A stretch of DNA of 64,000 nucleotides from Candidatus Nealsonbacteria bacterium (GCA_011050465.1 DRFQ01000001.1:114860-178859), one strand, 5' to 3'. Shown: positions 11,080 to 64,000, counted from the stretch's first letter. Notes: generated from the sequence alone by a model not told the origin. A program made the numbers and translations.

Positions 11080-11080
11080 A

Positions 11081-11272
11081 CCCCGTAGGAAGTTAAATAT
11101 TTTCCGTTGTTATTATATTTAGACCCTCTAAACAATTTTCTAATCATAGTGATTGATATAAAAAGGTTTTTGGATAGAAAATATTTGAGTTTTTATATAT
11201 GCCTCGAAGAAACTTACTTTTTATATTCTGTCTCGTTTTATCGACGAAAACCTTCTGTTTTCCTGCGGGCAT
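11081..11272. mobile_element. MITE-like repeat, copy B (TIR CCCCGTAGGAAG ... TTCCTGCGGGC)
   Basis: Same ends and shared internal blocks as copy A (ccccgtaggaaRttaaatattttccgttgttat; cgacgaaaaccYtctgtttYcctRcgggcata). Again begins 2 bp after the ATG of the adjacent minus-strand gene; junction 'cataccccgtagga' identical in both copies. Confidence 0.6.
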
Positions 11273-17876: not shown

Positions 17877-18082
17877 TAATTTGTTTTTTCTTTGTTCTCG
17901 GTGGATATGTTTAGAAACTTTTGATACAACTCATTTATTAATTCTTCCTGTTTTTTCAAACTTAAGACACTCCGGCGAATCCGGGCCTTTTCTCTGCGAA
18001 TAAATTTCCTGAGACTTTTTGGAAGTTTTTTTTGTTTCATAAATAAAAAAGTGATTTAACAATGTAGCAATTTAACAATTTT

Positions 18083-28459: not shown

Positions 28460-28464
28460 CTCTT

Positions 28465-28510
28465 AAATTGCTAAACTGTTAAATTGTCAAATTGTTAAAC
28501 TGGGAATAAT
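28465..28510. promoter_or_regulatory. Array of 8-bp WAAWTGTT direct repeats upstream of mutM
   Basis: cttaaattgctaaactgttaaattgtcaaattgttaaactg: five consecutive units. The same unit recurs at 43330-43410, 49440-49480, 59370-59410 and 18050-18080. Confidence 0.3.
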
Positions 28511-28552
28511 AAAATTTCTTTTATCGACAAAACAATTTAATAATGTGGCCAT

Positions 28553-42604: not shown

Positions 42605-43336
42605 ATGTCAGGCCATTCGCATTGGAAAAGTATAAAACACAAAAAAGGGATCGCCGACAAGGCGAAAAGTAAGGTTTTCTCGAAGCTTTCTCAGGCAATC
42701 TCGATTGCGGTCCAAGAAAAAGGGCCAGATCCAGAAACAAATTCTAAATTAAGGTTAGCTATAGAAACGGCGCGTTCTTTTAGTTTACCGAGAGATACTA
42801 TTGAACGTGCGATCAAAAAAGGAAGCGGCGAGCTTGAGGGAAAAAAATTAGAACCGATAACCTTTGAAGCTTATGGCCCCGGCGGAATCGCTATTATCGT
42901 CGAGAGTATTACCGATAATAAAAACCGTACTGTAAACGAAATTAAGCAAATTCTAAATCAGAACAACGGGAAACTTGCCGATGCTGGCGCGGTAAAGTGG
43001 CTCTTTGAAAGGAGAGGAATCATCACCCTACGAATTACGAATCAGTACGAATATACAAATAAAGAAGATCTAGAATTAAAAGTGATTGAGGCGGGGGCCG
43101 AAGATATTACTTGGAATAATAACGCCCTGAATATTTACACAAAAATTGAAGATTTCGATAAGGTTAAAAAAAACCTTGAAAGTCAGGAAATCAAGATAGA
43201 ATCCGCCTCTCTGGACTGGGTGGCTAAAGAGAATGTCCAGACCGCGCAAAAATACAAAGAAGCAACTGAAAAATTATTTGCGGCCTTAGACGAATCAGAT
43301 AGCGTTCAAGAAATATATTCAAACCTTAAAGTTTAA
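42605..43336 (+). CDS. yebC: YebC/PmpR-family transcriptional regulator
   Basis: 243 aa; 'MSGHSHWKSIKHKKG' N-terminus and three-domain YebC architecture; contains the 32-nt TACGAAT repeat in frame. Confidence 0.85.
   Translation: MSGHSHWKSIKHKKGIADKAKSKVFSKLSQAISIAVQEKGPDPETNSKLRLAIETARSFSLPRDTIERAIKKGSGELEGKKLEPITFEAYGPGGIAIIVESITDNKNRTVNEIKQILNQNNGKLADAGAVKWLFERRGIITLRITNQYEYTNKEDLELKVIEAGAEDITWNNNALNIYTKIEDFDKVKKNLESQEIKIESASLDWVAKENVQTAQKYKEATEKLFAALDESDSVQEIYSNLKV
43024..43055. repeat. TACGAAT-repeat segment inserted in frame in yebC
   Basis: accctacgaattacgaatcagtacgaatatac is identical over 32 nt to intergenic 58678-58709. Encodes 'TLRITNQYEYT', an extra loop relative to typical YebC. 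Confidence 0.5.
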
Positions 43337-43410
43337 TTGTTAAACTGTTACATTGTTATAGTGACTTCAATTGAACAATGTGACAATATAACAATGTAGT
43401 AATGTAATAA
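43330..43410. promoter_or_regulatory. Inverted array of 8-bp WAAWTGTT units upstream of ruvC
   Basis: aattgttaaactgttacattgttatagtgacttcaattgaacaatgtgacaatataacaatgtagtaatgtaataatgg; contains the 11-bp inverted repeat acattgttata / tataacaatgt. Confidence 0.3.
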
Positions 43411-43955
43411 TGGTAATATTAGGTATTGATCCCGGAACGGCTAAAGTGGGATATGGAGTGATTAGAAAAATCCAAAACCCACCGAACCGAACGAAGTTCG
43501 GGACTCCCCGTAGGGTTGCATCTAAAACTCAATATGGATTAAAATGTTTGAGTTATGGATTAATTCAAACTAGTTCTTCTTCGCCTCCGGCTGAGCGTTT
43601 AAAAAAAATAAGCCAAGAGTTGGGCCAGTTAATAAATAAATACCGGCCAGAGATTTTGGCCGTTGAAAATGTTTATTTCTTTAGAAACTTAAAAACTGCT
43701 CTACCCGTTTCTCAGGCTAAAGGGGTAATTTTACTCGCTGCCGCTAATCACAATATTCCGGTTTACGAATTTACTCCTTCACAGGTAAAAATGGCGGTGG
43801 TGGGATACGGTCGGGCCGAAAAAAGACAAGTCCAAGAAATGGTTAAAATCTTACTTAATTTAAAAGAGCTGCCCCGTTCAGATGACGCAGCAGACGCACT
43901 TGCGATAGCAATCTGTTACACGATTTCCCCTCAAGAACAATATCTTGCGAAGTAA
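43410..43955 (+). CDS. ruvC: Crossover junction endodeoxyribonuclease RuvC with an in-frame insert of about 20 aa
   Basis: 181 aa; 'ILGIDPGTAKVGYGVI', 'AVENVYFF', 'AKGVILLAAA', 'DAADALAIAICY'. Insert 'QNPPNRTKFGTPRRVASKTQYG' is encoded by the GC-rich stretch 43468-43510. Confidence 0.85.
   Translation: MVILGIDPGTAKVGYGVIRKIQNPPNRTKFGTPRRVASKTQYGLKCLSYGLIQTSSSSPPAERLKKISQELGQLINKYRPEILAVENVYFFRNLKTALPVSQAKGVILLAAANHNIPVYEFTPSQVKMAVVGYGRAEKRQVQEMVKILLNLKELPRSDDAADALAIAICYTISPQEQYLAK
43468..43510. repeat. GC-rich palindromic mini-insertion in frame within ruvC
   Basis: cccaccgaaccgaacgaagttcgggactccccgtagggttgc: palindrome ccgaacgaagttcgg plus the CCCCGTAGGG motif that matches the MITE TIR. 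Confidence 0.4.
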
Positions 43956-49375: not shown

Positions 49376-49483
49376 ATTGACATACCGTCACATTATTGCA
49401 TTATTCAATTAGTTTTATTGAGCAAAGAAATTTCGTTATTTTTAGTGCAACAGTTTACCAATTTAACAGTTTAACAATTTATT

Positions 49484-51339: not shown

Positions 51340-52830
51340 CTACATACCTTTTTTAATAACCGGAATAACTAACATAGCTCTTGTTTGGTTATCACCAATA
51401 TGGTTATCTTTAAGCCTGATATCACTCGCCGTAAACACTTCTCCTCTTCCATCCCCTCGGAATAAAACAGCACTAAAATTACCTTCAACTCTCAGCGAGG
51501 AGATTCCGTTACTATCAGTAAAGGTTGGACACCACCCCGCATCTATCCACTGGGGATAGTCTAGGGCCATTGGCGGGATAGGATAAATACCACACTCAGC
51601 CCCATTCTCATCTTCGTTAAAATTATAATTTTGATAAAGAGTTATTCCTCCAGAAGGTAAAGAGCTATCTGGTGGACGCTGAACAAAAACACTGATTGAT
51701 GAAACTCTGTCTTTTTCGACGTGCTCGACACAATATGAGTTATCCATACCAATAAGAGGATTACATTCAGGGATTGCACCTCCTTCGCTTAAGGGAATAC
51801 ATCTTGGAGGCCATTCGTCAATTGTGCCACCAAAAAAGACCTCAGCATCGCCTCGGAAATCATTGTGTTCGTGCAGAACTGCTCCGAGCTTACCGACGAT
51901 GACCATTTCTCCTCTACAACACTGTGGATTAATGTTACAGTCGATAACCCATGGCCCAGGGCATAAACCATCATCCCACACTAAATTTTCCGGCTTTTCT
52001 ATTCTTCGTGGTATTATTTTAATCGATTTGGCTTTGTTGTCAAAATTTATAGAACCACTCAAGTCAGACACGCTGCTTGTAAAAAGATGAGGATCTGCTT
52101 TACAACCGTCATCAGAGAAAAGATAAACCCCGGGCATTTTCCAGATTAATCTAACAGATTGGCTGTTTCCACTGATTGGTTTACAATCATCTCCATCATG
52201 ATCATCAGATTCCCAAGGTGTTCCTTCATAATTTTCTTCAGGGAAAATTTTGATCTCCATTTCTTCTGCAGAATCATAAAAATAAACTGATGTGGCCTCA
52301 TTGTTGAAGTCTCCCAGCGAAGAATAGTTGCTTCTTACTCTTAAAAAGTCTTCTCCCTCTATTAATCCCGAAGTGTCACTTTTGAGAGAATTACAATCAA
52401 TTCCCGGCCTTTCTTTGTACAAAATAACCCCTTTATTAAATTCTACTTTTCCTATTTTTAAAACCACCAACTCCGGATTAAGTTGGATTAAAATGACATA
52501 AGCAATAAGTAGAATAATTAAACCTAAAATGCCAGCTGTAATCTGGCTTTTGGCATCAGATATGGCTAAAGGGTTGCCGGCTGAAGCTAAATAGCGAAAG
52601 CCGCCGTAAACTAAACTACCAAAAGTAACCAAAGCGGCAATAAGCAAGGCGAGATTGAACAGATATTTAATATAATCTGGTAAAAAAGTTTTGACTGTCC
52701 TTGGGGTTTCTGCCCCCGAAACCTGAGGATAATCCACTTCTGTTTTTTGCGCCAGCGCTAAGCCGTTCAAAACCAAAAAACAGAAACTGGCAAGAATCAA
52801 AATTAAAAAGATTTTTTTAAAGCTTTTCAT
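51340..52830 (-). CDS. Secreted Cys-rich protein with N-terminal VirB2/TrbC-like two-helix pilin module
   Basis: 496 aa; signal peptide; 'LPDYIKYLFNLALLIAALVTFGSLVYGGFRYLASAGNPLAISDAKSQITAGILGLIILLIAYVILIQLNPE' (helix-loop-helix); C-terminal domain with about 16 Cys. Confidence 0.6.
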   Translation of the reverse strand: MKSFKKIFLILILASFCFLVLNGLALAQKTEVDYPQVSGAETPRTVKTFLPDYIKYLFNLALLIAALVTFGSLVYGGFRYLASAGNPLAISDAKSQITAGILGLIILLIAYVILIQLNPELVVLKIGKVEFNKGVILYKERPGIDCNSLKSDTSGLIEGEDFLRVRSNYSSLGDFNNEATSVYFYDSAEEMEIKIFPEENYEGTPWESDDHDGDDCKPISGNSQSVRLIWKMPGVYLFSDDGCKADPHLFTSSVSDLSGSINFDNKAKSIKIIPRRIEKPENLVWDDGLCPGPWVIDCNINPQCCRGEMVIVGKLGAVLHEHNDFRGDAEVFFGGTIDEWPPRCIPLSEGGAIPECNPLIGMDNSYCVEHVEKDRVSSISVFVQRPPDSSLPSGGITLYQNYNFNEDENGAECGIYPIPPMALDYPQWIDAGWCPTFTDSNGISSLRVEGNFSAVLFRGDGRGEVFTASDIRLKDNHIGDNQTRAMLVIPVIKKGM

Positions 52831-52848
52831 TTTTAGCTTGGATAAAAA

Positions 52849-54168
52849 TTATTTCTCTATTGGTTCGCAGCAAAAGAAATTAGTTAAATAGCACTCTTCC
52901 TGGTCGTCTGATAACATTCTTAACCATTTAGCTTCGTCACAACTAACAAGAGTTTCAACAAGCTGAACTTCCTCTGTTGGTTCGTATCCCGAAGCCGGAG
53001 TGGTGCACGCTGCCAGTCCTATCCTTGCTTTTTCCAACATAGCTCTAAGTCCCGGCGCCTTTTGAACTTCAGTGTTTATTGCAGCTGCGTAGTTAGCGAT
53101 TTGTAATGATCTGATATAAATTATAGCTCTCTGATCCCCTAATTCGACAATAGCATCTATGGGGCAGGCATTACCCGTGCAAGAGGAAATCCCGCAGTCG
53201 AAGTCTCGAACATATTTTTCTTCACAGGCACCACCAAAAGACTTATCAAAACATTCATTATCTCCCCAACACTGCGTTTCTGTCCCAATATTAAAACAGG
53301 TAGGGTCTATTGCCGGGTCACAAGAACCAACCGGCCCACAATCACAGGCCCCTATGCCCGGTCCATACCAGCAAGTTTCCCCTGTGACGACATCAGTCCA
53401 ACAGCATTCGTCAGAGGGAGCCGGAGGAAAAAATATACACATTTCCGGACCACATGATGATATTGCACAGACGCCAAAATCACTACATTCATCATCTCCC
53501 CAGACCCATGTTTCAGGATCATTAGATATTTTAAAACAGGTGGGGTCTGTCGGGTTTGCCGGGTTGCAGGTATTTCCATATTCGCAAAAATCTCCTTTTT
53601 CTTCCCAAGTACACAACCAACTACCACAGACACAGCTGCCTGGAAGTGCCTCGGGTGGGCAGCCCGGCGGATTTAGTCCGGTACGTGATATAGTTACATC
53701 CGCACAATTAGCGGTACACTCTTGATAAAGACAATTATCTGGATTCGGGTCGCAAAACTGTTCTGTTACAGTAACAGCATCACATTCGCCCCAGTAATTT
53801 TCACTATAATTCATCCAACAGTCTGTATTGCAATTTTCAGCTTGACATTCGTCAGGCAGAGGAAGCTCATAAACTGCATTGGCAGCTGCAACCACTTGTC
53901 CTCCTGCCGGCAGCATTTGATCATAATTCCAGATAATAGCCGTAGCCATTGCATAAGTGCCGTCCATTGCTTCTCCAATCGGGATTTCTCCACCCCCTAA
54001 ATATTGTCCAAATGCGCCAATTTCTTCTTCCTGGCATTCCCAATCCCATTGCTCTACAGCTGAAATTGCCTCCTCTTTATTATAGAAGAAAGAAAAGGTA
54101 AAGAAAAGCAGTCCCAAAAGCATAACAGGGAAAATAATCTTTTTATAGTTTCGTAATTTCATAAACAT
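52849..54168 (-). CDS. Secreted, extremely cysteine-rich protein (about 45 Cys, Trp-rich internal repeats)
   Basis: 439 aa; signal peptide; repeated 'C.P..DPTCF.I....(T)W.WGD(D/N)EC' units. The overlapping plus-strand ORFs are antisense artefacts of Cys/Gly codons. Confidence 0.6.
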   Translation of the reverse strand: MFMKLRNYKKIIFPVMLLGLLFFTFSFFYNKEEAISAVEQWDWECQEEEIGAFGQYLGGGEIPIGEAMDGTYAMATAIIWNYDQMLPAGGQVVAAANAVYELPLPDECQAENCNTDCWMNYSENYWGECDAVTVTEQFCDPNPDNCLYQECTANCADVTISRTGLNPPGCPPEALPGSCVCGSWLCTWEEKGDFCEYGNTCNPANPTDPTCFKISNDPETWVWGDDECSDFGVCAISSCGPEMCIFFPPAPSDECCWTDVVTGETCWYGPGIGACDCGPVGSCDPAIDPTCFNIGTETQCWGDNECFDKSFGGACEEKYVRDFDCGISSCTGNACPIDAIVELGDQRAIIYIRSLQIANYAAAINTEVQKAPGLRAMLEKARIGLAACTTPASGYEPTEEVQLVETLVSCDEAKWLRMLSDDQEECYLTNFFCCEPIEK

Positions 54169-54176
54169 AAATTAAA

Positions 54177-56414
54177 TTACCAGCATAAAGCAGGGTCATC
54201 TCTTCGATCAGGACCGCAAATCCCAGCAGTCCAATCGGGAGCTGCATCAACACATTCAAGTTGTACACATTCTGCCGGGTAAGGATTTACTGTGTCTGGA
54301 AAATAACCCATATGGAGGTGGTCGCCTTCACTAAAACCAGTATCATCGACATGGCCAATTAAGTCTCCTTTCAAGATTCCTATGCTGGCTTCATTCGCAA
54401 GACATATATTCTCGCCACAGGTGTCTAAAAGGTGGCAATAGCGAAATTCGCCGAATTCTGTAAAAAGTCTAATGGCAATACCACAGCTGCCAAAAGGATG
54501 ATAAGCAGTAATCGTACCATCAGCTACTGCATAAACAGGATCGCCTCTTGCGGCAGAAAGATCAATTCCATGATGCCCGGGATATCCTTCCCAGCCGCAG
54601 GTAAAACCAAAACCAGGCTGAAGGGGACAACCCGCTAATTCGGGAGGCAGAGGACCGCCGCCGCCAGGGGCTGTCGTGGTGCAGCTGCCCGTAGGATATG
54701 CCGGGTTTTCTTCAGCTTCTTGCTCGCCAAGATCAGGGAACAAGCTGATATAGAGTGGAAAAAAATTGGGCCAAAAGTTGGGGTTATTGGAAAGGGTGCA
54801 ACTAGCTCCTCCTGACCAACAGCGCATAAAAGAACAAAAGTCAGTGTTATCTTCTCCGCAAAAACCGCTACAATTACTTACTATGTCGAGGAAACATTGT
54901 AATTGGGCAGGAACGCCCCGGCCAGCTGGGCAGTCTACTATTCCTAAAGTCCAACAGAGTTCACCGCCAATATCGCACGGCGTACCATCATCATCAAACC
55001 CAGACTCTTCTCCCCACATAGTTAAAATCAAAGCTTGGTTCCAGTTGTTAGCTTGCGCCCAGTTTACTATATAATCCCAGCAATCAATTCCACCAGGACA
55101 GGTTGTGTTTTTTATTGTCGGATATGTAGCAGCTAAATCTTCTTTGATGCTTGCTGGTATGTCAAAATCATTAAAATAGAGGTCAATTTCGCACTCGTTA
55201 CAACCAGCGAGGGTATCTAAGATGGGGAAGGAAGGCCAACCCCCGCTGGCCATTAGCTCTTTTACTTGTTCTTCGTCAGTATAAAAAGTAGCAGGGTCGC
55301 CTTTTCCCCTAATCGTCTGGCCCAAAAAAGTAAAGGGAACAATCTCCACATCTCCGCCCAGTTCCAGTATAATCTGTTTCATCTCCAACATATTGTCGTA
55401 ATTTATGGGGTAAATCGTTTCTCTGATGATTTTTATCCCTAATTCTAATCTCTGGTTATCTTTTTTGAAACTGGTCAGATCGGGAAGTATTGCTTCCATT
55501 TCAGCCGCCAAAACCGCAGCCAGATTGCGAATATCTATTTTTAGATTTTCAGCGTCATCTCGTTTATCCAAACAAGGTTCGCCCGTGCAAATCACTGGCT
55601 CTGGATCCCAGTCCTGACAGGGACCTCCACAAAACTCAACGTCTAAACAGGGATCACCTGCACATTGCATCGGCAGACAATAATTTAACCCAAAATCAGG
55701 AGGAGGATCAGCACCGGATTGTCCAAGATCGCACTCTGAAGGATCGGGTTCGGTGTTGCCGCATACATTACAAGGATTATTGATTATGTCTTCAAATTGG
55801 ATTGTTTTGTCGGAAATTTGTGCTGAGAGGTTCTTAATGCTCTGGGCAGAACTATTGAGTCGATTTAGCCTGTTTGATTCTAAAACCCTTTCGATTAACT
55901 TTCCAATGGGAATTTCATAGAGTCTATAAACTTTGGCCGTTAACTGAAGCGGTTTAATTGGCACCATACAAACTCCACCATTACATTCCTGGCCTTCGTA
56001 ACAATCTGCATCAACACTGCATTCTAAGGCGAGGTCAAGAGGGCCGATGCGTAAAATGGTTAATTCGGGGTTAACAGCCACTAAAAATAAATAAGAGCCC
56101 AGTAAAATCATTAAACCGACAATTCCAGCTGTGATTTGGTCTTTGGCGTCTGACATGGCAGCTGGTTGGCCTACTGAAAACATATAACGAAAGCCGCCAT
56201 ATATTAGAGAGAAAAAAGCTATCAGGCCGGCAATAATTAGTGCGAAGTTATAAATATATTTTATATATTCCGGCAAAGTAGGTTCTGCCGGAAGAGGCGC
56301 TCCCGGGATGGTTGGATAGGTAACCTCTAAGTCCTGGGCAAAAACAAAAACAGCAAAAAACAGGAGGAAAGAAACTAAAAAAATTAATTTGTATTTTTTT
56401 ACTTTCTTGTTCAT
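54177..56414 (-). CDS. Secreted protein: VirB2-like pilin module + Cys-rich region + C-terminal M23 (LytM) peptidase
   Basis: 745 aa; N-terminus 'LPEYIKYIYNFALIIAGLIAFFSLIYGGFRYMFSVGQPAAMSDAKDQITAGIVGLMILLGSYLFLVAVNPE' paralogous to the 496-aa protein; M23 motifs 'HHGIDL...DPVYAVADG' and 'GDHLHMGYF'. Confidence 0.7.
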   Translation of the reverse strand: MNKKVKKYKLIFLVSFLLFFAVFVFAQDLEVTYPTIPGAPLPAEPTLPEYIKYIYNFALIIAGLIAFFSLIYGGFRYMFSVGQPAAMSDAKDQITAGIVGLMILLGSYLFLVAVNPELTILRIGPLDLALECSVDADCYEGQECNGGVCMVPIKPLQLTAKVYRLYEIPIGKLIERVLESNRLNRLNSSAQSIKNLSAQISDKTIQFEDIINNPCNVCGNTEPDPSECDLGQSGADPPPDFGLNYCLPMQCAGDPCLDVEFCGGPCQDWDPEPVICTGEPCLDKRDDAENLKIDIRNLAAVLAAEMEAILPDLTSFKKDNQRLELGIKIIRETIYPINYDNMLEMKQIILELGGDVEIVPFTFLGQTIRGKGDPATFYTDEEQVKELMASGGWPSFPILDTLAGCNECEIDLYFNDFDIPASIKEDLAATYPTIKNTTCPGGIDCWDYIVNWAQANNWNQALILTMWGEESGFDDDGTPCDIGGELCWTLGIVDCPAGRGVPAQLQCFLDIVSNCSGFCGEDNTDFCSFMRCWSGGASCTLSNNPNFWPNFFPLYISLFPDLGEQEAEENPAYPTGSCTTTAPGGGGPLPPELAGCPLQPGFGFTCGWEGYPGHHGIDLSAARGDPVYAVADGTITAYHPFGSCGIAIRLFTEFGEFRYCHLLDTCGENICLANEASIGILKGDLIGHVDDTGFSEGDHLHMGYFPDTVNPYPAECVQLECVDAAPDWTAGICGPDRRDDPALCW

Positions 56415-56833
56415 TGCTTAAGTTCGAAATAAACCAATAGAACCCAGAGAGGGAGCATTCCCACAATAGGGATGAACTCTATGGCAATTAGCAGGGGTCT
56501 TAACCATCTTAGTCTTTTTGCCCATTTGGCTGCTTTTCCTAATCTGGCCGTTGCCCCCCGGGTGGCTTTAAGCTGTCCAGAGCGGGAATAAATCCAGCCC
56601 CCGATTACAAGTATTGCGACGATATCAAGAATAAGAAGACTTCCAATGAAGAAATCGATTATATCTATTATAGCGGCAAGAGGCAGCATAATCAATCCTG
56701 CCGGGCTAAGTAGAGCTCCTTGTCTTTCGATTTCTGCCGTTTCTATTTGTTCTTTTATTTTCTTTTCTAGAGATTTATTTTTCTTTTCTAAAGGCTTAGT
56801 AGTCGTTTTTAAAGATTTAATAGCCATAGTCAT
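56411..56833 (-). CDS. Small polytopic membrane protein (type-IV-secretion-associated; VirB3-like by context)
   Basis: 140 aa, 3 predicted TM; 4-nt overlap with the upstream gene, suggesting translational coupling. Confidence 0.45.
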   Translation of the reverse strand: MTMAIKSLKTTTKPLEKKNKSLEKKIKEQIETAEIERQGALLSPAGLIMLPLAAIIDIIDFFIGSLLILDIVAILVIGGWIYSRSGQLKATRGATARLGKAAKWAKRLRWLRPLLIAIEFIPIVGMLPLWVLLVYFELKQ

Positions 56834-56872
56834 TATCTTTTTTCTTTACCCGCTCAAGTTTTCCCAAAAAAT

Positions 56873-58678
56873 TTAGGTGGGTTTACCCAGTTCTTTCTTT
56901 GCTTTTCTTATTTTCAGGATTTCTTCGGGAGTAGTAGTGATTAACTGATCTTCCCCGTAAGAGGCAACGATCTTGAGCGCCACATGTTTTTGGCCGGCAA
57001 AAAACAATCCTTCTCCGACCGATGATTCTAATAATAAATATTTTTCTTCTTCAGTCAGATTAAAAGTTTTTTTAACAATGTCTATGGTGGCAGGGCTTTG
57101 TTTCATTAAAAGCTGTAGGGCGGAGTTGGCGATTATTGGTTGGCCGTATTCTGATTTCATAAAATCATTTACATCCTGGGTAATCGTTGTTACTCCCAAC
57201 CAGTACTTTCTTGCTCTTTTTGCTATTCCAAACAAGAAAGAAGCCCCATCTTCGGTCTGCATTAACCACCAGGCCTCGTCTACCACTAAAATTCTTTTTT
57301 TCAATTTTGAGCGGATGGTATTCCAAACATACCTCAAGACTATAAACATTGCCATTTGTTTTAATTCTTCTTCCATGTCTCTGATGCCAAAACAGACAAA
57401 GTGGCCCGTTGTTTTAATGTTTGATGGCTGGTTGAAAAAACTGGCAAAAGTTCCTCGGGTAAATTTTCTCACCCTTGTAACCAGACTTTCTGCTCCTTCC
57501 ATGCTATCCAAAACGGATTCTAAATCTTGCATTAAAGGCGGTTCAATCTTAGAAAAATCAGACTCCGGAGTAATATCTTTAGCGGCATAAGTTTCGGTTA
57601 AAGCCCGGTCAATGATAGCATCTTCTTCCGGGGTTAATCCCCCCAGCATAATTCTCAAAAGACCAACCAAGTTGATAATATTCGATCTTAAAATATCTTC
57701 CGGTCTTTCATCTTCTCTGGGAATTGGCAAATCAAAAGGATTAAGGTGATTGGGAGAGGTCAGGGAAATTTTAAAGAAGGAGCCGTCAACAGCATCAGAC
57801 AAAGACTCATATTCATTTTCAGGGTCAATAATAATAACATCTACGCCCTGCATTAGAAGTCGTAAAATTTCTAATTTTACTGCATAACTTTTTCCTCCGC
57901 CTGCCTTTCCGAAAACGACCGAATTCGCATTTTCCAGACTGAAGCGGTCAAATAAGACCAAAGAATTATTGTGAAGGTTAAGGCCGTATAAAATCCCTTC
58001 ATTTGAAGAAAGGTCAAAAGAGATAAAAGGAAAACAACTTGAAAGAGGGCCGGTATTCATTGGGGTATAAACCTGCATGAGGTCTAATCCGTAAGGAGAG
58101 GTTGAGACAAACCCTTCTCTTTGCCGAAAGAGGGCCGGTTTAATGTAGATTAAGCGCGATTCAAAAATTGAACGTAGAGTATTCTCGGTATTTTTTAATT
58201 CTTGTTCGTTATCGCCATAGATAGTTAAATAAAGGCCGAATTTAAACATTCTTTCCTGGGCCGACATAAGCTTATCTCTTAAAGACTCAAGGTCTCGATA
58301 GGCTGTTTCTAGGGCGGGGTCGCGTACCAGCCCTTTTTCTTCTTTATCGATAATTTCAGATTGGATTTCGGTAACTTTTTTCCGTAGCTTCTTTAAAATT
58401 GTGCCTGTGTCAGTTGGGTTAATAAATAGTGAAATATCAAGAGGGCTTTCTAAATTTACAAGGGGTGAAAACCAGCCAGAGCCAATATATCTAGGAAAGG
58501 AGAAAACAAAAAAAGATCTGGCCATTCTATCACCGAATTTAAGATTACTTTGACCTACTTCAATAGACGAGGGCGCAATAATATCAACAGCTGTGATTGG
58601 CTCGTCTTCAAAAATTTTTTCTGGAATTTTTATTTTCTTTTTTAAAAAAGGTATTTTCATATCCCTGCGAATTACCAA
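56873..58678 (-). CDS. virB4: Type IV secretion ATPase VirB4/TrbE/TraC family
   Basis: 601 aa; N-terminal 'PSSIEVGQSNLKFGDRMARSFFVFSFPRYIGSGWFSPL' VirB4 N-domain; Walker A 'GKAGGGKSYAVK'; 'VIIIDPENEY'; Walker B 'LVVDEAW'. Confidence 0.8.
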   Translation of the reverse strand: MVIRRDMKIPFLKKKIKIPEKIFEDEPITAVDIIAPSSIEVGQSNLKFGDRMARSFFVFSFPRYIGSGWFSPLVNLESPLDISLFINPTDTGTILKKLRKKVTEIQSEIIDKEEKGLVRDPALETAYRDLESLRDKLMSAQERMFKFGLYLTIYGDNEQELKNTENTLRSIFESRLIYIKPALFRQREGFVSTSPYGLDLMQVYTPMNTGPLSSCFPFISFDLSSNEGILYGLNLHNNSLVLFDRFSLENANSVVFGKAGGGKSYAVKLEILRLLMQGVDVIIIDPENEYESLSDAVDGSFFKISLTSPNHLNPFDLPIPREDERPEDILRSNIINLVGLLRIMLGGLTPEEDAIIDRALTETYAAKDITPESDFSKIEPPLMQDLESVLDSMEGAESLVTRVRKFTRGTFASFFNQPSNIKTTGHFVCFGIRDMEEELKQMAMFIVLRYVWNTIRSKLKKRILVVDEAWWLMQTEDGASFLFGIAKRARKYWLGVTTITQDVNDFMKSEYGQPIIANSALQLLMKQSPATIDIVKKTFNLTEEEKYLLLESSVGEGLFFAGQKHVALKIVASYGEDQLITTTPEEILKIRKAKKELGKPT

Positions 58679-58724
58679 CCCTACGAATTACGAATCAGTA
58701 CGAATATACGAATTTGTAGGGTTA
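58664..58724. repeat. TACGAAT tandem repeat flanked by inverted CCCTAC/GTAGGG
   Basis: ccctgcgaattaccaaccctacgaattacgaatcagtacgaatatacgaatttgtagggtta; the central 32 nt are identical to the in-frame segment of yebC (43024-43055). Confidence 0.5.
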
Positions 58725-59366
58725 TTAGATACTTAGTTCGGGAGGAATTTCTGGGTAATAGCCAAATTCAGATTCTCTTGGGTGATGAAGACCCCAGAGA
58801 AGTTCGATTAATTCTTCGGTAGTTAGGGGAATCGCTCGTAGTCCGGATCTTCTTAATCCCAAGGCCACAAACTCCATTCTCTGCCAAAGTTGAGATTTGC
58901 ATCTTTGAAATTCTCCCTCGTTCAAAACAGACATTTTCTGGGCTTTAAGTAATTGCAGCGGAGTTTTTATCCCCTGGGCTTCAAAAATAGTGAAAGGAAC
59001 AACCACATAAAAAGATTTTGTCATTATTGTGCCTGACTCAACCAAACTCTTTATAAAATCATAATATCCACCCGTTTGAATTTTAAGCAGTTCGTTTTTC
59101 TGATTTTTTTCCAGCTCTTTTATTTTTTCAAGGTATCCCGTAATATTTAATCTCCTTGAGTGAACTAAAATTTGGCAAGGGAAATCAAGCGAATTTAAGA
59201 AATTCTGAAATTGATAGATGGTGGCATTTTGTTCGTCTTCAGATTTTAAGGCAAAATTTAAAGAAGACACCATTAAAACTCCTCTTAGGGCTCTATTTTT
59301 TAAAACAATTACCCCTTCTCTTATTTGTTTAACCTCCAAAAATTGTTGAGTAGTTGCTTGTGCCAT
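58725..59366 (-). CDS. Hypothetical protein of the type-IV locus (VirB4-N-domain-like fold suspected)
   Basis: 213 aa; 'EVKQIREGVIVLKNRALRGVLMVSSLNFALKSEDEQNATIYQFQNFLNSLDFPCQILV' resembles the N-terminal region of conjugative ATPases; no ATPase motifs. Confidence 0.4.
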   Translation of the reverse strand: MAQATTQQFLEVKQIREGVIVLKNRALRGVLMVSSLNFALKSEDEQNATIYQFQNFLNSLDFPCQILVHSRRLNITGYLEKIKELEKNQKNELLKIQTGGYYDFIKSLVESGTIMTKSFYVVVPFTIFEAQGIKTPLQLLKAQKMSVLNEGEFQRCKSQLWQRMEFVALGLRRSGLRAIPLTTEELIELLWGLHHPRESEFGYYPEIPPELSI

Positions 59367-59443
59367 AAAACTACATTGTTACATTGTCAAATTGCCACAT
59401 TGTTAAATCGAAAATTTCTGATTGGTAAATTGAATTAGAGAAT

Positions 59444-59863
59444 TTATTTCGTTTTGAGTTCAATTTGAGTTGATAAATCTTTTAAACGGCCTTGCTTGGT
59501 TATTTTCAATAAAGCAGCTGGTTCGGCTTTTTCTTTTCCGGCCTTTACTTTTTCTTTTTTATAAACAAGCCTTGGCTCTGTTTGTTTTTTTCTCCAGGTA
59601 TAGACTTTCGATGAAATATTAAAAAATACAAAGCTTATTAATACGCTTAACAAGGGCCGGTTCCCAATTTTAATTAAGGCGAAGCTGAAGGCTGTAATTG
59701 CCAGAATAAAAGCAATGACAAGGAAAAGGTAAAAATTACTTAAGATAAAATAGAGAAAAAAAATAATAATTCCAGCTCCACCAAGAAAAATAAACTGGCG
59801 CCAAGTAAAAGGACCAACTATCTTCGTTTCCATTTCAATAAATTGGGGAATAGAAAATTCCAT
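59444..59863 (-). CDS. PrgI/VirB3-like two-TM membrane protein
   Basis: 139 aa; 'VGPFTWRQFIFLGGAGIIIFFLYF' followed by a second TM and a basic tail. Confidence 0.4.
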   Translation of the reverse strand: MEFSIPQFIEMETKIVGPFTWRQFIFLGGAGIIIFFLYFILSNFYLFLVIAFILAITAFSFALIKIGNRPLLSVLISFVFFNISSKVYTWRKKQTEPRLVYKKEKVKAGKEKAEPAALLKITKQGRLKDLSTQIELKTK

Positions 59864-60004
59864 GTTGTTATTTATCTTTAAGAATAAAAAACTATTTAAT
59901 TAAACCGCGCTAAGTAATTATCTTAATTATATCACAAACAAAAAATAGTAGTAAATAACATCAAAGACAATAAACATCAAGGCGTCAAAAAGAAGACATT
60001 GTTA

Positions 60005-60032
60005 TTGACAAATTATGAGGGTATGCTATAAT
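60005..60032 (+). promoter_or_regulatory. Consensus sigma-70 promoter (TTGACA-16 nt-TATAAT) driving a structured leader
   Basis: atTTGACAaattatgagggtatgcTATAATac. Downstream leader contains hairpins ggagagagc...gctctctcc, ccgcaacaatgcgg and ctccgag-taat-ctcggag before the AGGGAGG RBS. Confidence 0.55.
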
Positions 60033-60232
60033 ACAGGCGTAAGAGGAGAGAGCAAGTATTTTCATATTAAATTCGTCATAGACGGCTCTCTCCGAGGGCC
60101 TTGTTTTTTAGGAGAGTTCTTTTTTCCGCAAAGTTCATCGAAATTGGTGGATTCTACGGAGAGAAAAACGAATTTCCGCAACAATGCGGACTCCGAGTAA
60201 TCTCGGAGAAAAAGAACAGAAAGGGAGGAAAA

Positions 60233-60586
60233 ATGGAATCCAATTCTGGCTTTGTTGTTGATGCTGGGTTTATCCTGGGAATGGTAGGCAATTACCTTGT
60301 CCTGGGGATCTTCATCCAGCGGGCAGTGGGGAAAGAAAGGTGCGGGGGTGCTCTCTGCACTTATCAAGCTTCCCACCATCCCGGGATTGAGGGTAGCCAT
60401 AGCAGCATCGCTTGGCCTCGACGGCTGGCAATCATTGTCGGCTGGCTTCCCTGGTTCGTACTCCGTGTTATCCGCTTTGTCTTCCAGACTCTGGGTTGGA
60501 CAATCAGCAGGTTCCGTCCTCGGAGGATCTGGATGAGCCTTTGTGTCACAGGCCGAGCGGTGCGCTGGACAGTCCAGGGCACCTAA
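60233..60586 (+). CDS. Possible small two-TM protein encoded in a 58%-GC islet (alternatively a structured RNA)
   Basis: Strong SD 'aagggaggaaaaATG'. 118-aa ORF 'MESNSGFVVDAGFILGMVGNYLVLGIFIQ...LAIIVGWLPWFVLRVIRFVFQTLGW' has two hydrophobic helices. All six frames are open here because of GC-richness, so coding status is unproven. Confidence 0.3.
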   Translation: MESNSGFVVDAGFILGMVGNYLVLGIFIQRAVGKERCGGALCTYQASHHPGIEGSHSSIAWPRRLAIIVGWLPWFVLRVIRFVFQTLGWTISRFRPRRIWMSLCVTGRAVRWTVQGT

Positions 60587-60751
60587 TACCAAGGGGAGGA
60601 GGGCCTCATGATTCGTAGTCGATGAGACCGCGATCTGGCCTTCCCCCCTTACCCAATTTTTCTAGCAAAGAAAATTTTTAAACTATTTAACATTATCTAA
60701 TCCGAGGAAGTCCTAAAAGGGGCTCTTTTTTATTTTTGTATTAGCAAAAAC

Positions 60752-60779
60752 TTGACAAAAAACTTAAATCTTATATAAT
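60752..60779 (+). promoter_or_regulatory. Consensus sigma-70 promoter (TTGACA-16 nt-TATAAT) for the SPFH gene
   Basis: cTTGACAaaaaacttaaatcttaTATAATtaaa; RBS aggaggtgcaaaATG. Confidence 0.5.
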
Positions 60780-60845
60780 TAAAAAGCTAAGAAAAGGAGA
60801 AATCTTGGCAAAAAGTTATTTAACAACTGCATTAGGAGGTGCAAA

Positions 60846-62018
60846 ATGGTAGCAACGATAGTAACTGGAATAGTCTTCGGAGTAGTCTTCCTTTCACTCT
60901 TCACCATTGTCTATATAAAGTTAGGATGGTGGAAGTTTCCCATAATACCCCAGATAGTGAAGCCAGAAGAGATGGCAATAAAAGTTATCCTGGGAAGACC
61001 AGAAGAGTTTTTCGACAGCGGCCTTCGCTGGATTCCTCTCTGGTTTAGCTCTCTCAGAAGGTTTCCCAAAACGATGTATAACCTGGATTATCCGGCCAGA
61101 GAGGCTGTGACTAAAAGAGAAACGATAGATGGAATAGAATATGGAGCCCAGGTATTAAAAGTAGATTCAGTAGCTTATGTGAGCTTCCCGCAGTGCTACG
61201 TATGGCTTCGGTACAAAGACCAGCAGGGGAAACTGCAAATAGCGAGGGTGAACAGCGAAACGGCCCTAACAAAGAAAAAAGATGAACTCAAGAAAGCAGG
61301 AATGACAGACATTGAAGCCAAAGGCGGGCTTGTCGAAATATACCGGCGACAGATTCCCATTGACGAAGGAAAGCTAAAGGATTTCACTGGAGAGGCAATA
61401 GTCGCAGCCCTGCGTGTAGCTATGGGTAAGGTTACCTGGAGACAGGCAACCGAGGATATTGAAGACGTTAGAAAGGCAGCTGAGGACGTTTTTAAGTCTA
61501 GCGATGGTGCTTTGCTTGCGGCAGGATTCCATCCAGACGATTTGAGACTGGCTATTGAGGAAGTAAAGCTTCCTCAAGAACTGGAGCAAGCTCTGCCAGG
61601 GCCCGACAGGGCAAGGCTAGAGGCTCAAGCGGCAAAGTTTGTTTCTCAGACTCGGGCCACCGAAACGGTCGGAACAGTCATTGAAATGATGGCTCAAAGC
61701 AGAGGCAAGTCGCTTCAGGAAGTTCAGGCGGAAATTGAAGCTGACCCCGACGCCAGAAAGGAATTCCTAGCCCTGTCCAAGGACTTGATTGTTCGAAGGA
61801 TGGGTCTTGACAAGAATGCCTACCTTGACATCCGGGTAGAGGGAGCCGATGGAATTGAGAAATCTCTCTTGAACCTTGTTGCTGCCTGGCAAAGAATGCC
61901 AGGGGGCGGAAAAGAAAAAGAAGAAAAAGAAGAAAAAAAAGGCCGTAGAAGAGTCCGCGTTCCAGGCGGAACCAGAGAGATGGATGAAGAAGAGAGAAGA
62001 AGGTATGGGATACCCTAA
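60846..62018 (+). CDS. SPFH/band-7 (stomatin/flotillin-like) membrane protein with charged C-terminal tail
   Basis: 390 aa; N-terminal TM 'IVTGIVFGVVFLSLFTIVYI', SPFH-like core, Ala/Glu-rich coiled coil, 'KEKEEKEEKKGRRR' tail. Codon usage (ATA Ile, AGA/AGG Arg, about 48% GC) differs from neighbouring genes. Confidence 0.55.
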   Translation: MVATIVTGIVFGVVFLSLFTIVYIKLGWWKFPIIPQIVKPEEMAIKVILGRPEEFFDSGLRWIPLWFSSLRRFPKTMYNLDYPAREAVTKRETIDGIEYGAQVLKVDSVAYVSFPQCYVWLRYKDQQGKLQIARVNSETALTKKKDELKKAGMTDIEAKGGLVEIYRRQIPIDEGKLKDFTGEAIVAALRVAMGKVTWRQATEDIEDVRKAAEDVFKSSDGALLAAGFHPDDLRLAIEEVKLPQELEQALPGPDRARLEAQAAKFVSQTRATETVGTVIEMMAQSRGKSLQEVQAEIEADPDARKEFLALSKDLIVRRMGLDKNAYLDIRVEGADGIEKSLLNLVAAWQRMPGGGKEKEEKEEKKGRRRVRVPGGTREMDEEERRRYGIP

Positions 62019-62068
62019 TTATAAAGGGGCGACTACTGTCGCCCCTCTTTTGTTATTTATATCAATAT

Positions 62069-62629
62069 TTATTCAAATGGTTCCCGGTAAGTATCTTCTT
62101 TCCGCGGCATAGGTTTTTCTTCTTCTAAGGGAGTTTCAGGCTTTTCTATTTTTGGTGGAACAGTCTCTGGTTCAGATGGAGCCGGAGTTTTTAAGGATTC
62201 CTCTGGCGGCGGAGGAGCAACTGGCAGAGGTTTAATCGGAACTCTTTTCCTGGTAAGAGGAGTAATTTCCCTTTCGATTACGACTTTTCTGGCAAAAGTA
62301 AGAACGTTTTTCTCAAGGTCTTTAGCTAAATCTTTTGCAATTTTCGGAGAAATATTAAAAATTTGCCGAAGTTCTTCTGGAAAATCCTTAATCATTATTT
62401 TTTCCTCAGCCATATCCTTGATAAGTCTTGCTATTTTTCTTTCCGGCTGTTTTCCAGTAATTTTCTCCTTTTCTTTAAAAGTTTGAGCTTCTTTTAACTC
62501 TTGTGCCAACTTCTCCATTATTTCTTTCGGCTCTCTGTGCAGTTTATACTTTTTCAGTATTTCTTGGATGACAAAATGAGATTCGTCCGGGAAAATTATT
62601 TCTTGATTTTTGGATAGTTTTTGAGCCAT
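62069..62629 (-). CDS. Hypothetical protein with Pro-rich C-terminus (type-IV locus)
   Basis: 186 aa; charged helical N-terminal half, 'PLPVAPPPPEESLKTPAPSEPETVPP' tail. Confidence 0.45.
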   Translation of the reverse strand: MAQKLSKNQEIIFPDESHFVIQEILKKYKLHREPKEIMEKLAQELKEAQTFKEKEKITGKQPERKIARLIKDMAEEKIMIKDFPEELRQIFNISPKIAKDLAKDLEKNVLTFARKVVIEREITPLTRKRVPIKPLPVAPPPPEESLKTPAPSEPETVPPKIEKPETPLEEEKPMPRKEDTYREPFE

Positions 62630-62645
62630 ATTTTTTACATTTTAT

Positions 62646-63977
62646 TTAGGTTTGATAATTTGGATTACCTTGAATATTGATCCACATCGCTTCTACTTTT
62701 TCAGCCTCTCTTATTGCTTTGGGGGTGCCTGTAAGTGTCAAGCCACGAATCATATCGGTGATATCTTGCTCCCTTTGGTTGATAAGATTTCTCAGAGCGT
62801 CTTTTTGCAGTTTGTTTCCTGTGCGGCCTAACTCCTGCACCTTTGCCATGTCCATAGAGTAAAATACTTGAAGATTTTCGTCGGTGTACTTTGGCCCACC
62901 AGGTGTTTGAGTTTCAAAGGCTTGGGGCAGAATGTTTCTCCTGAATTCTCTAGTTTCTTGTCTTTCTATATGCCCACGGATACTTTCTTCTGTAGTCATG
63001 CCGGGAGAAACACCGGGAGCTCCCGCTACTGCCGCAGTCGGCATTTTACCATAAAGCATTCTAGGAGAAACCCCATATTTGATGGCTTCACCGAAATATC
63101 TTTGATCTTTTGCCTCGAGCCGGTCTCTCTTAGCCAGCTCTTCTATGGCCGCTGCCCGCGTTAATCTACCCTCTCGGGTCATAACACCCTTTTCCGCAAT
63201 CCCTCGAATGTTTTCTACACTTTCAGCCCCAAGATTTCTCCCTGCTTTTTTTCTATCTCTTTCTAATTCTGATGCATAAGCCCCAGGCCCTCCCACAAGC
63301 CCACTAAGAGGTGTTCTTTCCAGCCTTTGCCTTATTCTTTGTTCTGTCCTTGCGACAGCCGGAATGCCTCTGGCCGTTGATACTCCCGCAGCTCCTGCTA
63401 TTTTAGGCATCGCTTTTCCCGCCTTTTGAGCTATAGAAATAACTCCGGAGGCTCCCATGGCTGAGGTGCTCAGGGCGGCAAAAAATCCAAGTAAAAGGAA
63501 AGCCAAAGCTATTCCATAAGGCAAAACCTCGTTTAAAATAGCAGCGACAGGATTGGGGTCTCCTACTGCTCCTGTCAGGCCGCCTCTACTGGCTATCCCA
63601 ATCATATGGTCTCCTAACCATAAGAAAAAGGCGGCAAAGACTCCAATGAATGTCCATTGAAGAAATTGACTCCACCATGTTCGGAACCAACCCCTGGTAG
63701 CGGGTAGAACATAAAAGACAAAGGCAATTGGGGACATGATAACCAACAGCCAAATAGCCACCCTTCTCATTATAAAAAGGATGGCAAAGAGAAAGAAAAC
63801 AATAGCAGCAAAGAACATAAATAGCGCAATAACTATAATTTTAATGAAAAAACTTAAAAGCGCAATAGGATTAAAAAAGTTAAACCCTCCCAAGTCGCTG
63901 GCAATCATATTGCTTATATTAGTGAACACGCTACCTATAATTTTTCCTCCGGTTAAGCCCCCCAAAAAAAAGTTCAT
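62646..63977 (-). CDS. VirB6/TrbL-like polytopic membrane protein (may extend beyond the window end)
   Basis: At least 443 aa; five or more TM helices in the N-terminal 190 aa followed by a Gly/Ala-rich then charged extramembrane domain; placement in the type-IV cluster. Confidence 0.55.
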   Translation of the reverse strand: MNFFLGGLTGGKIIGSVFTNISNMIASDLGGFNFFNPIALLSFFIKIIVIALFMFFAAIVFFLFAILFIMRRVAIWLLVIMSPIAFVFYVLPATRGWFRTWWSQFLQWTFIGVFAAFFLWLGDHMIGIASRGGLTGAVGDPNPVAAILNEVLPYGIALAFLLLGFFAALSTSAMGASGVISIAQKAGKAMPKIAGAAGVSTARGIPAVARTEQRIRQRLERTPLSGLVGGPGAYASELERDRKKAGRNLGAESVENIRGIAEKGVMTREGRLTRAAAIEELAKRDRLEAKDQRYFGEAIKYGVSPRMLYGKMPTAAVAGAPGVSPGMTTEESIRGHIERQETREFRRNILPQAFETQTPGGPKYTDENLQVFYSMDMAKVQELGRTGNKLQKDALRNLINQREQDITDMIRGLTLTGTPKAIREAEKVEAMWINIQGNPNYQT

Positions 63978-64000
63978 CAGAATGTTGGCAAAATCTACAA

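Follow-up and report, generated by a model that had tools for sequence, protein, structure and literature searches.

We analysed a window of 64,000 nucleotides of DNA from Candidatus Nealsonbacteria (GCA_011050465.1 DRFQ01000001.1:114860-178859), which lies on a 385-kb chromosome piece and contains a type IV secretion system (T4SS) locus at positions 51340-63977; all coordinates are those of the window. A 100%-identical partial protein is annotated as Ca. Nealsonbacteria, and the LCGC14 metagenome, from marine sediment, contains another identical protein. A preliminary description made from the sequence had proposed a T4SS-like locus of Gram-positive style, encoding a VirB4 ATPase, a VirB6/TrbL-like channel protein, a PrgI/VirB3-like protein, two small membrane proteins and three large secreted proteins, here called A496, B439 and C745. 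All of these open reading frames (ORFs) were present on the minus strand where they had been placed (Table 1). The contig order was LysM-M23, KsgA, TrbL, H186, Band_7 (opposite strand), PrgI, TrsD-like, VirB4, D140, C745, B439, A496, Jag, YidC, RnpA, DnaA, DnaN and PBP. The block was not contiguous as first thought, as 59864-62068 holds a plus-strand SPFH/Band_7 gene and a GC-rich stretch. Two proteins encoded downstream of VirB4 carry a VirB2-like two-helix hairpin fused to a large ectodomain, an architecture that extends across the lineage.

Table 1. Genes of the T4SS locus, in order of window coordinates.
Feature	Coordinates	Strand	Description	Evidence and distribution
A496	51340..52830	-	496 aa; signal peptide, VirB2-like hairpin (28-125), predicted beta/gamma-crystallin-type domains (131-493)	AlphaFold2 (AF2), Foldseek
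B439	52849..54168	-	439 aa; N-terminal transmembrane (TM) anchor and EIPIG domain split by ~210-aa Cys-rich insert (116-329)	profile and hhalign
C745	54177..56414	-	745 aa; signal peptide; VirB2-like hairpin 27-121; EIPIG helical region 162-399; Cys-rich insert ~215-281; unassigned Cys-rich domain 401-590; M23 600-710	
D140	56411..56833	-	140-aa membrane protein directly downstream of VirB4	hydrophobic segments 38-85, 111-139
VirB4	56873..58678	-	VirB4 ATPase	P-loop_TraG E 1.3e-23, AAA_10, DUF87; NF045971
F213	58725..59366	-	TrsD-like protein, 213 aa, split-off VirB4 N-domain	NCBIfam; in 149 related loci
PrgI	59444..59863	-	PrgI/VirB3-like small membrane protein, 139 aa	PF12666 PrgI E 1.9e-9; in 137 related loci
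SPFH/Band_7	60846..62018	+	membrane-scaffold protein between VirB6 and PrgI	Band_7 E 4e-7
H186	62069..62629	-	186-aa acidic Pro-rich soluble protein	no Pfam/NCBIfam family, no hydrophobic segment
TrbL	62646..64000	-	VirB6/TrbL-like polytopic membrane protein	weak Pfam TrbL/TrbL_4 on window fragment; precomputed TrbL_3 on full gene (L001)

Searches with Pfam and NCBIfam profiles assigned VirB4, PrgI, TrbL and M23, in agreement with the proposed core of the system. The VirB4 gene as called (595 aa, start 58660) passed NF045971 (VirB4-like conjugal transfer ATPase, CD1110 family) with 366 bits against a cutoff of 325, over model positions 178-734 of 752. Models of diderm VirB4, TrbE and TraC scored far under their cutoffs, indicating the monoderm (FATA) type. 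Immediately upstream of VirB4 are both F213 and PrgI, the latter weakly matching the N-terminus of the fused VirB3-VirB4 model of a Mycoplasma integrative conjugative element (ICE) in NCBIfam. F213 matched positions 3-151 of the CD1110 VirB4 model, positions 102-233 of VirB4_plasma (Mycoplasma ICE VirB4; E 1.4e-9) and TrsD (E 1.7e-4), and has a precomputed PF26593 TraC-like match. Since F213 covers the N-terminal model positions missing in VirB4, we take it to be a split VirB4 N-domain and not a membrane protein. The TrbL frame is open to the window end and goes on for 532 nt beyond it, giving a full gene of 628 aa with ~7 hydrophobic segments that is kept in 84 related loci; an exact look-up of the window fragment found no match because the gene extends past the window. 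D140 keeps its position in L005, L006 and L008, lies beside the pilin-M23 gene in L007 and is present in 36 loci. H186 had phmmer matches in 13 related loci, and in many relatives its homologues lie directly upstream of PrgI; its C-terminal DTYRE motif is common to proteins of 145-152 aa in L005, L007 and L089. Of the two small membrane proteins proposed, only D140 stood, the 213-aa ORF being a soluble TrsD-like VirB4 N-domain and the 186-aa ORF having no hydrophobic segment.

A496 and C745 share an N-terminal module consisting of a signal peptide followed by two long hydrophobic helices, and their N-terminal 130 aa are 51% identical. Against the T4SS_pilin profile PF18895, C745 scored 26.2 bits and A496 22.4 bits, compared with a gathering cutoff of 26.6, and many orthologues carry precomputed PF18895 matches. 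VirB2, TrbC and TraA pilins are small hairpin-only proteins of ~70-120 aa; here the hairpin precedes ectodomains of 370 aa (A496) and 620 aa (C745). The AF2 model of A496 (mean predicted local distance difference test, pLDDT, 81.7) consists of the signal peptide, helices at 51-82 and 87-117, a flexible linker and then beta domains. Structural comparison with Foldseek matched these domains to gamma/beta-crystallins (probability 1.0; E 2e-5 for gamma-D-crystallin; target-normalised TM-score up to 0.69), and the model (pLDDT 82) contains the paired Greek-key motifs by which the superfamily is recognised. A496 itself had no Pfam Crystall match; PF00030 is present in its homologues P0064 and P0065. 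The microbial Ca2+-binding motif of beta/gamma-crystallins, N/D-N/D-x-x-S/T-S, occurs in A496 as one full copy (NNEATS) and two relaxed copies, and the domains are probably Ca2+-binding.

C745 and B439 have a different domain in common. In C745, residues 162-399 form a helical region that begins with 'YEIPIG' and has a Cys-rich insert between two long helices. The EIPIG domain of B439 matched that of C745 with an hhalign probability of 96% (E 2e-9, N-terminal half), and its insert carries most of the cysteines of the protein. B439 had no Pfam, NCBIfam or PDB sequence match; a profile search returned 188 representative homologues, typically of 220-350 aa. The EIPIG domain also occurs C-terminally behind a T4SS_pilin module in some proteins of 600-1000 aa. 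The M23 peptidase previously proposed for the C-terminus of C745 was confirmed (E 7e-10), with the HxxxD and HxH zinc-ligand motifs intact and the catalytic residues conserved. A lytic transglycosylase or lysozyme-like (VirB1, SLT) domain was not confirmed in C745 400-590; SLT_3 was seen in the more distant C745 orthologues P0024 and P0073, where the lysozyme-like domain is placed after M23.

The numbers of cysteines in A496, B439 and C745 are 13, 38 and 38, not 16 to 45 as first reported, and 12, 38 and 38 after removal of the signal peptide or anchor, all even. B439 (8.7% Cys) and C745 (5.1%) are indeed the two most Cys-rich window ORFs of at least 150 aa (median 0.79%), and A496 is only mildly enriched (2.6%). 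Even counts, together with the MdbA/VKOR-type oxidoreductases reported for candidate phyla radiation (CPR) bacteria, suggest that the ectodomains are disulfide-bonded. Two further features of the preliminary description were not borne out. BLAST self-comparison of the three proteins showed no internal repeats, Trp-rich or otherwise (Trp 1.4-3.0%), the sole short two-copy motif visible being DPTCF..W.WGD.EC in B439, and 'giant' overstates lengths of 439-745 aa.

The fusion of hairpins to large ectodomains is not a peculiarity of this genome. We scanned 160 related loci, with VirB4 of 56-88% identity, from Nealson-, Staskawicz-, Gribaldo-, Zambryski-, Wildermuthbacteria and others, using profiles built from the window. 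The hairpin module occurred in 204 ORFs from 105 of the 160 loci, almost always at the N-terminus; small divergent pilins may have escaped the profile, which derives from fusion proteins. These ORFs had a median length of 471 aa, with five of at most 200 aa, 43 longer than 800 aa and the longest 2095 aa, and a median Cys content of 2.7% against 0.43% in neighbouring housekeeping proteins. The twelve most Cys-rich (1019-2095 aa) contained 73-88 Cys. A co-oriented hairpin ORF lay downstream of VirB4 in 85 of the 102 loci with enough flank, and in 70 of the 102 when only ORFs longer than 400 aa were counted. The hairpin module is highly conserved (mean column identity 72%) and the ectodomains vary. 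Hairpin-M23 fusions were restricted to the five loci nearest to the window locus, and the B439 domain was found either as a standalone protein or as the C-terminal ~240 aa of large hairpin proteins. Hairpins fused to large Cys-rich ectodomains are thus a real, lineage-wide feature.

Other combinations of the same parts were also seen. In L020, L023 and others, some C745 orthologues, for example P0020 and P0023, carry an A496-family crystallin-type domain directly after the hairpin, and pilin proteins of 1000-1200 aa with 63-83 Cys in Staskawiczbacteria-type loci have the B439 domain at their C-terminus. Elsewhere, the window encodes a protein of 618 aa that has three Lamin-tail (LTD) domains (E 7e-47; 40744-42600, plus strand) and a PilB-type T2SSE ATPase (37633-38961, plus strand). 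In other genomes the T4SS hairpin module is also found fused to LTD domains (P0068, P0069), so LTD may be part of the same surface-domain repertoire.

Parts of the ectodomains are hypervariable. The window and the Logan contig L008 are ~89% identical in DNA from VirB4 into A496, with homology breaking off in just two segments, aa 226-278 of C745 and aa 116-329 of B439. Protein identity to L008 was 80-94% in the flanks and 42% in the insert of C745, and 88-100% in the flanks and 29% in the insert of B439. In L008 the inserts of both genes have a common 39-aa module (67% identity, E 6e-20), and the window inserts are weakly alike (E 1e-4); this comparison of two genomes hints that the C745 and B439 inserts change together. 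P0014 is a mosaic, with a hairpin 96% identical to that of C745, the other insert type and a C-terminal half that is 42-49% identical. Local loss of homology in Cys-rich ectodomains was also observed in L113/L118, L016/L019 and L108/L111, but not in L032/L134 or L033/L135. The large Cys-rich surface proteins, two of which carry these inserts, are candidate host-specificity determinants. Two mechanisms of diversification were considered and rejected: a diversity-generating retroelement, with no template/variable repeat in 51340-56414 and no reverse transcriptase (RT) domain among the scanned window ORFs, and silent cassettes, with no donor copies of the inserts in the 64-kb window.

Housekeeping genes flank the locus on both sides and include DnaA, DnaN and RnpA, which places the T4SS cluster at the chromosomal origin. 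The gene order was found again in the long contigs L005 and L006, with a rearranged set in L007, and among the 160 related loci YidC was found in 99, DnaA in 78 and KsgA in 71, besides the TrsD-like and PrgI genes (Table 1). The remaining scanned ORFs of the window were housekeeping genes, the PilB-type ATPase and the LTD protein. Relaxase, type IV coupling protein (T4CP), integrase and RT domains were not detected among the window ORFs scanned for domains (at least 100 aa, six without family match and a few left unscanned), as the preliminary description had stated for relaxase and VirD4. Relaxase and T4CP were also not detected in the 2.5 kb past the window end, nor in the ten unassigned families of large ORFs (at least 400 aa) that recur most often in the 160 related loci. 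The combination that marks a conjugative element, a relaxase, a T4CP and an integrase or attachment sites with the cluster, was thus not found in the 64-kb window and the following 2.5 kb. With these flanks and this synteny, the earlier view that this is not an ordinary conjugative element is very probably right.

Relaxase-free, chromosomal, oriC-proximal T4SS loci with VirB2-like pilin genes have been described in Patescibacteria (PMC10633639, PMC12102498, PMC12857230), and a FEMS review from 2025 lists the patescibacterial T4SS (PMC12857230). Quinonero-Coronel et al. (2025) reported a Patescibacteria-specific VirB4 clade related to MPF-FATA, with TrsD, PrgI and VirB6 near virB4 and M23- or LysM-containing hydrolases, relaxases near virB4 in only 15 cases, and a Paceibacteria T4SS adjoining dnaA, dnaN, rnpA and ksgA (PMC12102498). 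The T4SS and its pilin array are essential in the Saccharibacterium Southlakia epibionticum (Wang et al., 2023, Cell; PMC10633639), and in Paceibacterales that parasitise methanogens, proteins with T4SS-pilin domains belong to the highly expressed genes without known function (Kuroda et al., 2024; PMC10936435). The gene order and profile assignments reported here fit this published description, so we identify the locus as a Patescibacteria-type T4SS; family, taxon and synteny suggest that its VirB4 belongs to the Patescibacteria-specific clade. The same flanks across many candidate genera indicate long vertical inheritance. The proposal of an undescribed architecture was therefore only partly right. 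The locus as such is known from the three studies cited, whereas pilin-like anchors with large Cys-rich ectodomains are widespread, and we found no discussion of the size, Cys content or fusion partners of these 'pilins' in the searchable T4SS literature. What remains novel is that, throughout the lineage, VirB2-like modules are fused to ectodomains that are large, Cys-rich and locally hypervariable.

We consider it likely that the locus is a vertically inherited chromosomal T4SS of Patescibacteria type, derived from monoderm MPF-FATA machinery and located at the origin, with surface parts for host contact or wall passage. Its role is most likely host contact and wall passage and not conjugation, and the system probably conjugates no DNA; an apparatus for contact or attachment, as suggested earlier, is also the leading published view. 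PrgI (VirB3), the TrsD-like protein and VirB4 (the last two jointly making one full-length VirB4), and TrbL/VirB6 would form the membrane translocon. The VirB2-like hairpin of C745 would anchor the protein in the membrane or deliver it to the machine, with the loop presumably cytoplasmic and the C-terminal domain outside, as in membrane VirB2. Gram-positive systems have membrane-anchored cell-wall hydrolases such as PrgK, CwlT and TcpG, and the active-looking M23 endopeptidase of C745 most likely acts like these, opening the symbiont's own peptidoglycan for the apparatus. The window contains PBP and Mur ligase genes, which indicates that the organism makes peptidoglycan. A496 would use the common hairpin to present its beta/gamma-crystallin domains, and B439 would be a TM-anchored helical domain with a disulfide-knotted variable insert; both are most likely modules for host-cell contact or adhesion, with the variable inserts as the best candidates for this role.

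Several observations weigh against this interpretation. Both hairpin proteins of the window score just below the PF18895 cutoff, so that 'pilin' here denotes a predicted family. A profile of the module compared with solved structures found no VirB2 or TraA by sequence, only non-significant matches to the transmembrane hairpin of HtrII, and read strictly the module is a predicted plain two-helix membrane anchor. The AF2 model of C745 is poor (pLDDT 58), leaving aa 126-600 largely uninterpreted. Many patescibacterial T4CP homologues have been reported far from virB4 (PMC12102498), and a T4CP could lie elsewhere on the chromosome. Finally, Ca. Nealsonbacteria have been seen on the archaeon Methanothrix, which fits a self-directed M23 but points to no particular host ligand.

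A tentative alternative is that the hairpin-ectodomain proteins polymerise through the VirB2-like module into a pilus or short fibre, a Cys-rich, strain-variable 'display pilus' by which host specificity would be set. A small canonical pilin is missing from the locus, whose only VirB2-like modules are those of A496 and C745, and the scarcity of short module ORFs in relatives (five of 204 with at most 200 aa) points the same way, as does the conserved module with variable ectodomains, which is expected of an assembly role. In F-type pili the pilin C-terminus faces outward, which would accommodate such a display. However, a VirB2-type helical filament would offer little steric room for ectodomains of 370-2000 aa on each subunit, no image of a pilus exists for the lineage, the profile built from fusion proteins may have missed small divergent pilins, and the module has no sequence match to solved pilins. 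More speculative still is a wider version in which the VirB2-like hairpin is a general delivery or assembly handle, the T4SS exports large, disulfide-knotted, cassette-variable ectodomains and polymerises them into a decorated fibre or surface array, and the co-varying inserts of C745 and B439 determine, at strain level, to which host cell an ultrasmall episymbiont can attach. If true, no counterpart of such a T4SS pilus type has been described, and it would offer a concrete way into the host specificity of CPR bacteria.

We regard it as unlikely that the T4SS is a DNA- or nutrient-uptake machine, like Helicobacter ComB or Sulfolobales Ced, with the surface proteins docking to the host. Patescibacteria lack nucleotide synthesis and a review proposes a T4SS uptake route (PMC11665869), T4CP and relaxase were not detected nearby, and VirB4 weakly matched the NCBIfam models of CedB (E 5e-14) and CedD (1.6e-5). 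These matches are far under the cutoffs and reflect nothing more than common P-loop regions, VirB4 matches the conjugative CD1110 family much better than any other, the cluster encodes no ComEC-type or Ced-type channel, and the sequence gives no transport direction. It is more doubtful again that A496, B439 and C745 are general envelope proteins, for instance for wall remodelling at division (EnvC/LytM-like), that merely neighbour the T4SS and use the hairpin as an anchor. The pilin assignment is below threshold and a separate LysM-M23 gene adjoins ksgA, but the placement of hairpin ORFs directly downstream of VirB4 in 85 of 102 loci speaks against this, and the hairpin proteins stay with the T4SS genes in the rearranged clusters L007, L012, L023 and L031. 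Moreover, C745 keeps its catalytic residues, unlike EnvC, and hypervariable surface inserts would be unexpected in housekeeping wall enzymes. A decayed or split ICE with its relaxase and coupling protein elsewhere is very improbable: the VirB4 family is typical of conjugative transposons and the part inspected is 64 kb plus ~2.5 kb of a 385-kb contig, but housekeeping genes flank the cluster on both sides at the replication origin, the scanned window ORFs hold no integrase, relaxase or T4CP domain, the same flanks in Nealson-, Staskawicz-, Gribaldo- and Zambryskibacteria imply long vertical inheritance, relaxases lie near virB4 in only 15 cases of the published survey (PMC12102498), and flanks and synteny led us to reject an ordinary ICE.

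The plus-strand SPFH/Band_7 gene keeps its position and orientation in L005, L006 and L007 and occurs in 16 or more related loci; more divergent copies exist elsewhere. The gene goes unmentioned in the T4SS survey (PMC12102498). Its product may help organise the membrane machine. Between this gene and PrgI lies a GC-rich stretch of ~700 nt (60000-60760, plus strand; core 60037-60740) with up to 59% GC, compared with 36-39% in the genome. It has a perfect TTGACA-17-TATAAT promoter at ~60005-60033, a terminator-like hairpin with a T-run at ~60715-60735, and a predicted RNA fold far stabler than shuffled sequences (z -6.8 on the plus strand, -4.3 on the minus strand). It also encodes a W/R-rich ORF of 117 aa (60234-60586) with a strong ribosome-binding site; a 176-aa minus-strand gene called there on one contig copy looks spurious. 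The core had no Rfam match at the gathering threshold or at E up to 1, and blastn found no homologue of the stretch in 165 other loci. L006 has an analogous GC-rich insert (z -5.1) with little sequence similarity and ORFs that are not significantly similar. The stretch could be a structured RNA or encode an odd small membrane protein.

Further features of the window were noted. An intergenic motif of 3-4 tandem ~8-nt copies, (A/C)ATTGT(T/C)A(A/C), occurs in both orientations at 18041-18083, 28464-28538, 43323-43424, 49407-49481 and 59371-59419, one set being located between the TrsD-like gene and PrgI and another upstream of rnpA; it may be a regulator-binding or promoter-associated element. 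Regions in 1162-1289 and 11074-11203, 9.9 kb apart, contain stretches of 40-42 nt that are 95% and 74% identical (families D6 and D8), one upstream of GcpE (ispG) and the other upstream of an unassigned 415-aa ORF, and may represent a common regulatory leader. A Mur ligase with a C-terminal Archease domain (20141-21916, minus strand), an unusual combination of wall-synthesis enzyme and RNA-ligase cofactor in one protein, is encoded near RtcB (18083-19528) and an RNA 3'-phosphate cyclase (2263-3342).

The T4SS core described here is ordinary for the phylum and leaves understanding of the core unchanged. The surface proteins bear on another matter. For the question of how hosts are recognised and exploited by Patescibacteria, whose essential T4SS has a role that has been called 'completely unknown' (PMC11665869), the Cys-rich variable proteins offer concrete leads. 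In the Paceibacteria-type lineage the 'pilin' genes encode large Cys-rich surface proteins, an architecture hidden when PF18895 matches are counted as small pilins. The inserts of C745 and B439 are precisely bounded and differ between strains that are ~89% identical in DNA, and A496, B439 and C745 lend themselves, as defined targets, to structure prediction, labelling with antibodies or nanobodies and strain comparison.

Compared with the published Patescibacteria T4SS (Wang et al., 2023, SEML1_0006-0019; Quinonero-Coronel et al., 2025, Microb Genom), the locus has the same core of VirB3/PrgI, TrsD, VirB4 and VirB6, candidate VirB2-like genes (just under the PF18895 cutoff in the window) close to virB4, with a non-pilin gene breaking up their array, a gene for a peptidoglycan hydrolase that follows virB4, neither relaxase nor T4CP in the vicinity, and a position beside dnaA, dnaN, rnpA and ksgA. 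The published accounts treat the VirB2 homologues as small pilins, whereas here and in relatives they are N-terminal modules of mostly Cys-rich proteins of 240-2095 aa (five of 204 with at most 200 aa). The window locus also differs in having one hairpin fused to M23 and another to beta/gamma-crystallin domains, an embedded SPFH gene and no recognised VirB8-like protein. With MPF-FATA systems (C. difficile CTn2 CD1110, pCF10 PrgH-L, ICEBs1, Mycoplasma ICE Mbov_0395/0397) it shares a VirB4 that passes the CD1110 cutoff, PrgI and a membrane-anchored cell-wall hydrolase (cf. PrgK, CwlT, TcpG). The fused ATPase of the Mycoplasma ICE is colinear with the succession of PrgI, TrsD-like protein and VirB4, and the hairpin is weakly similar to the 80-aa Mycoplasma pilin-like protein. 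Unlike these systems, the locus has no relaxase, T4CP, oriT or integrase and lies off any mobile element; its hydrolase is M23 only, SLT not being confirmed in C745, and there is no PrgB-type LPXTG adhesin. In contrast to Gram-negative T4SS, it has neither a VirB5 homologue nor an outer-membrane core complex. As in VirB2/TraA pilins, a cleavable signal peptide precedes a two-helix hydrophobic hairpin; canonical pilins are ~70-120 aa without an ectodomain, and the window hairpins have no sequence match to solved pilins. The variable surface part of the locus could plausibly correspond to VirB5, or to the variable VirB2 paralogues known from Bartonella and Anaplasma (PMC12102498). Like the microbial beta/gamma-crystallins (Protein S, spherulin 3a; PF00030), the A496 ectodomain is predicted to consist of repeated Greek-key domains; unlike them, it follows a T4SS pilin-like hairpin in the same protein, and its gene belongs to a T4SS cluster.

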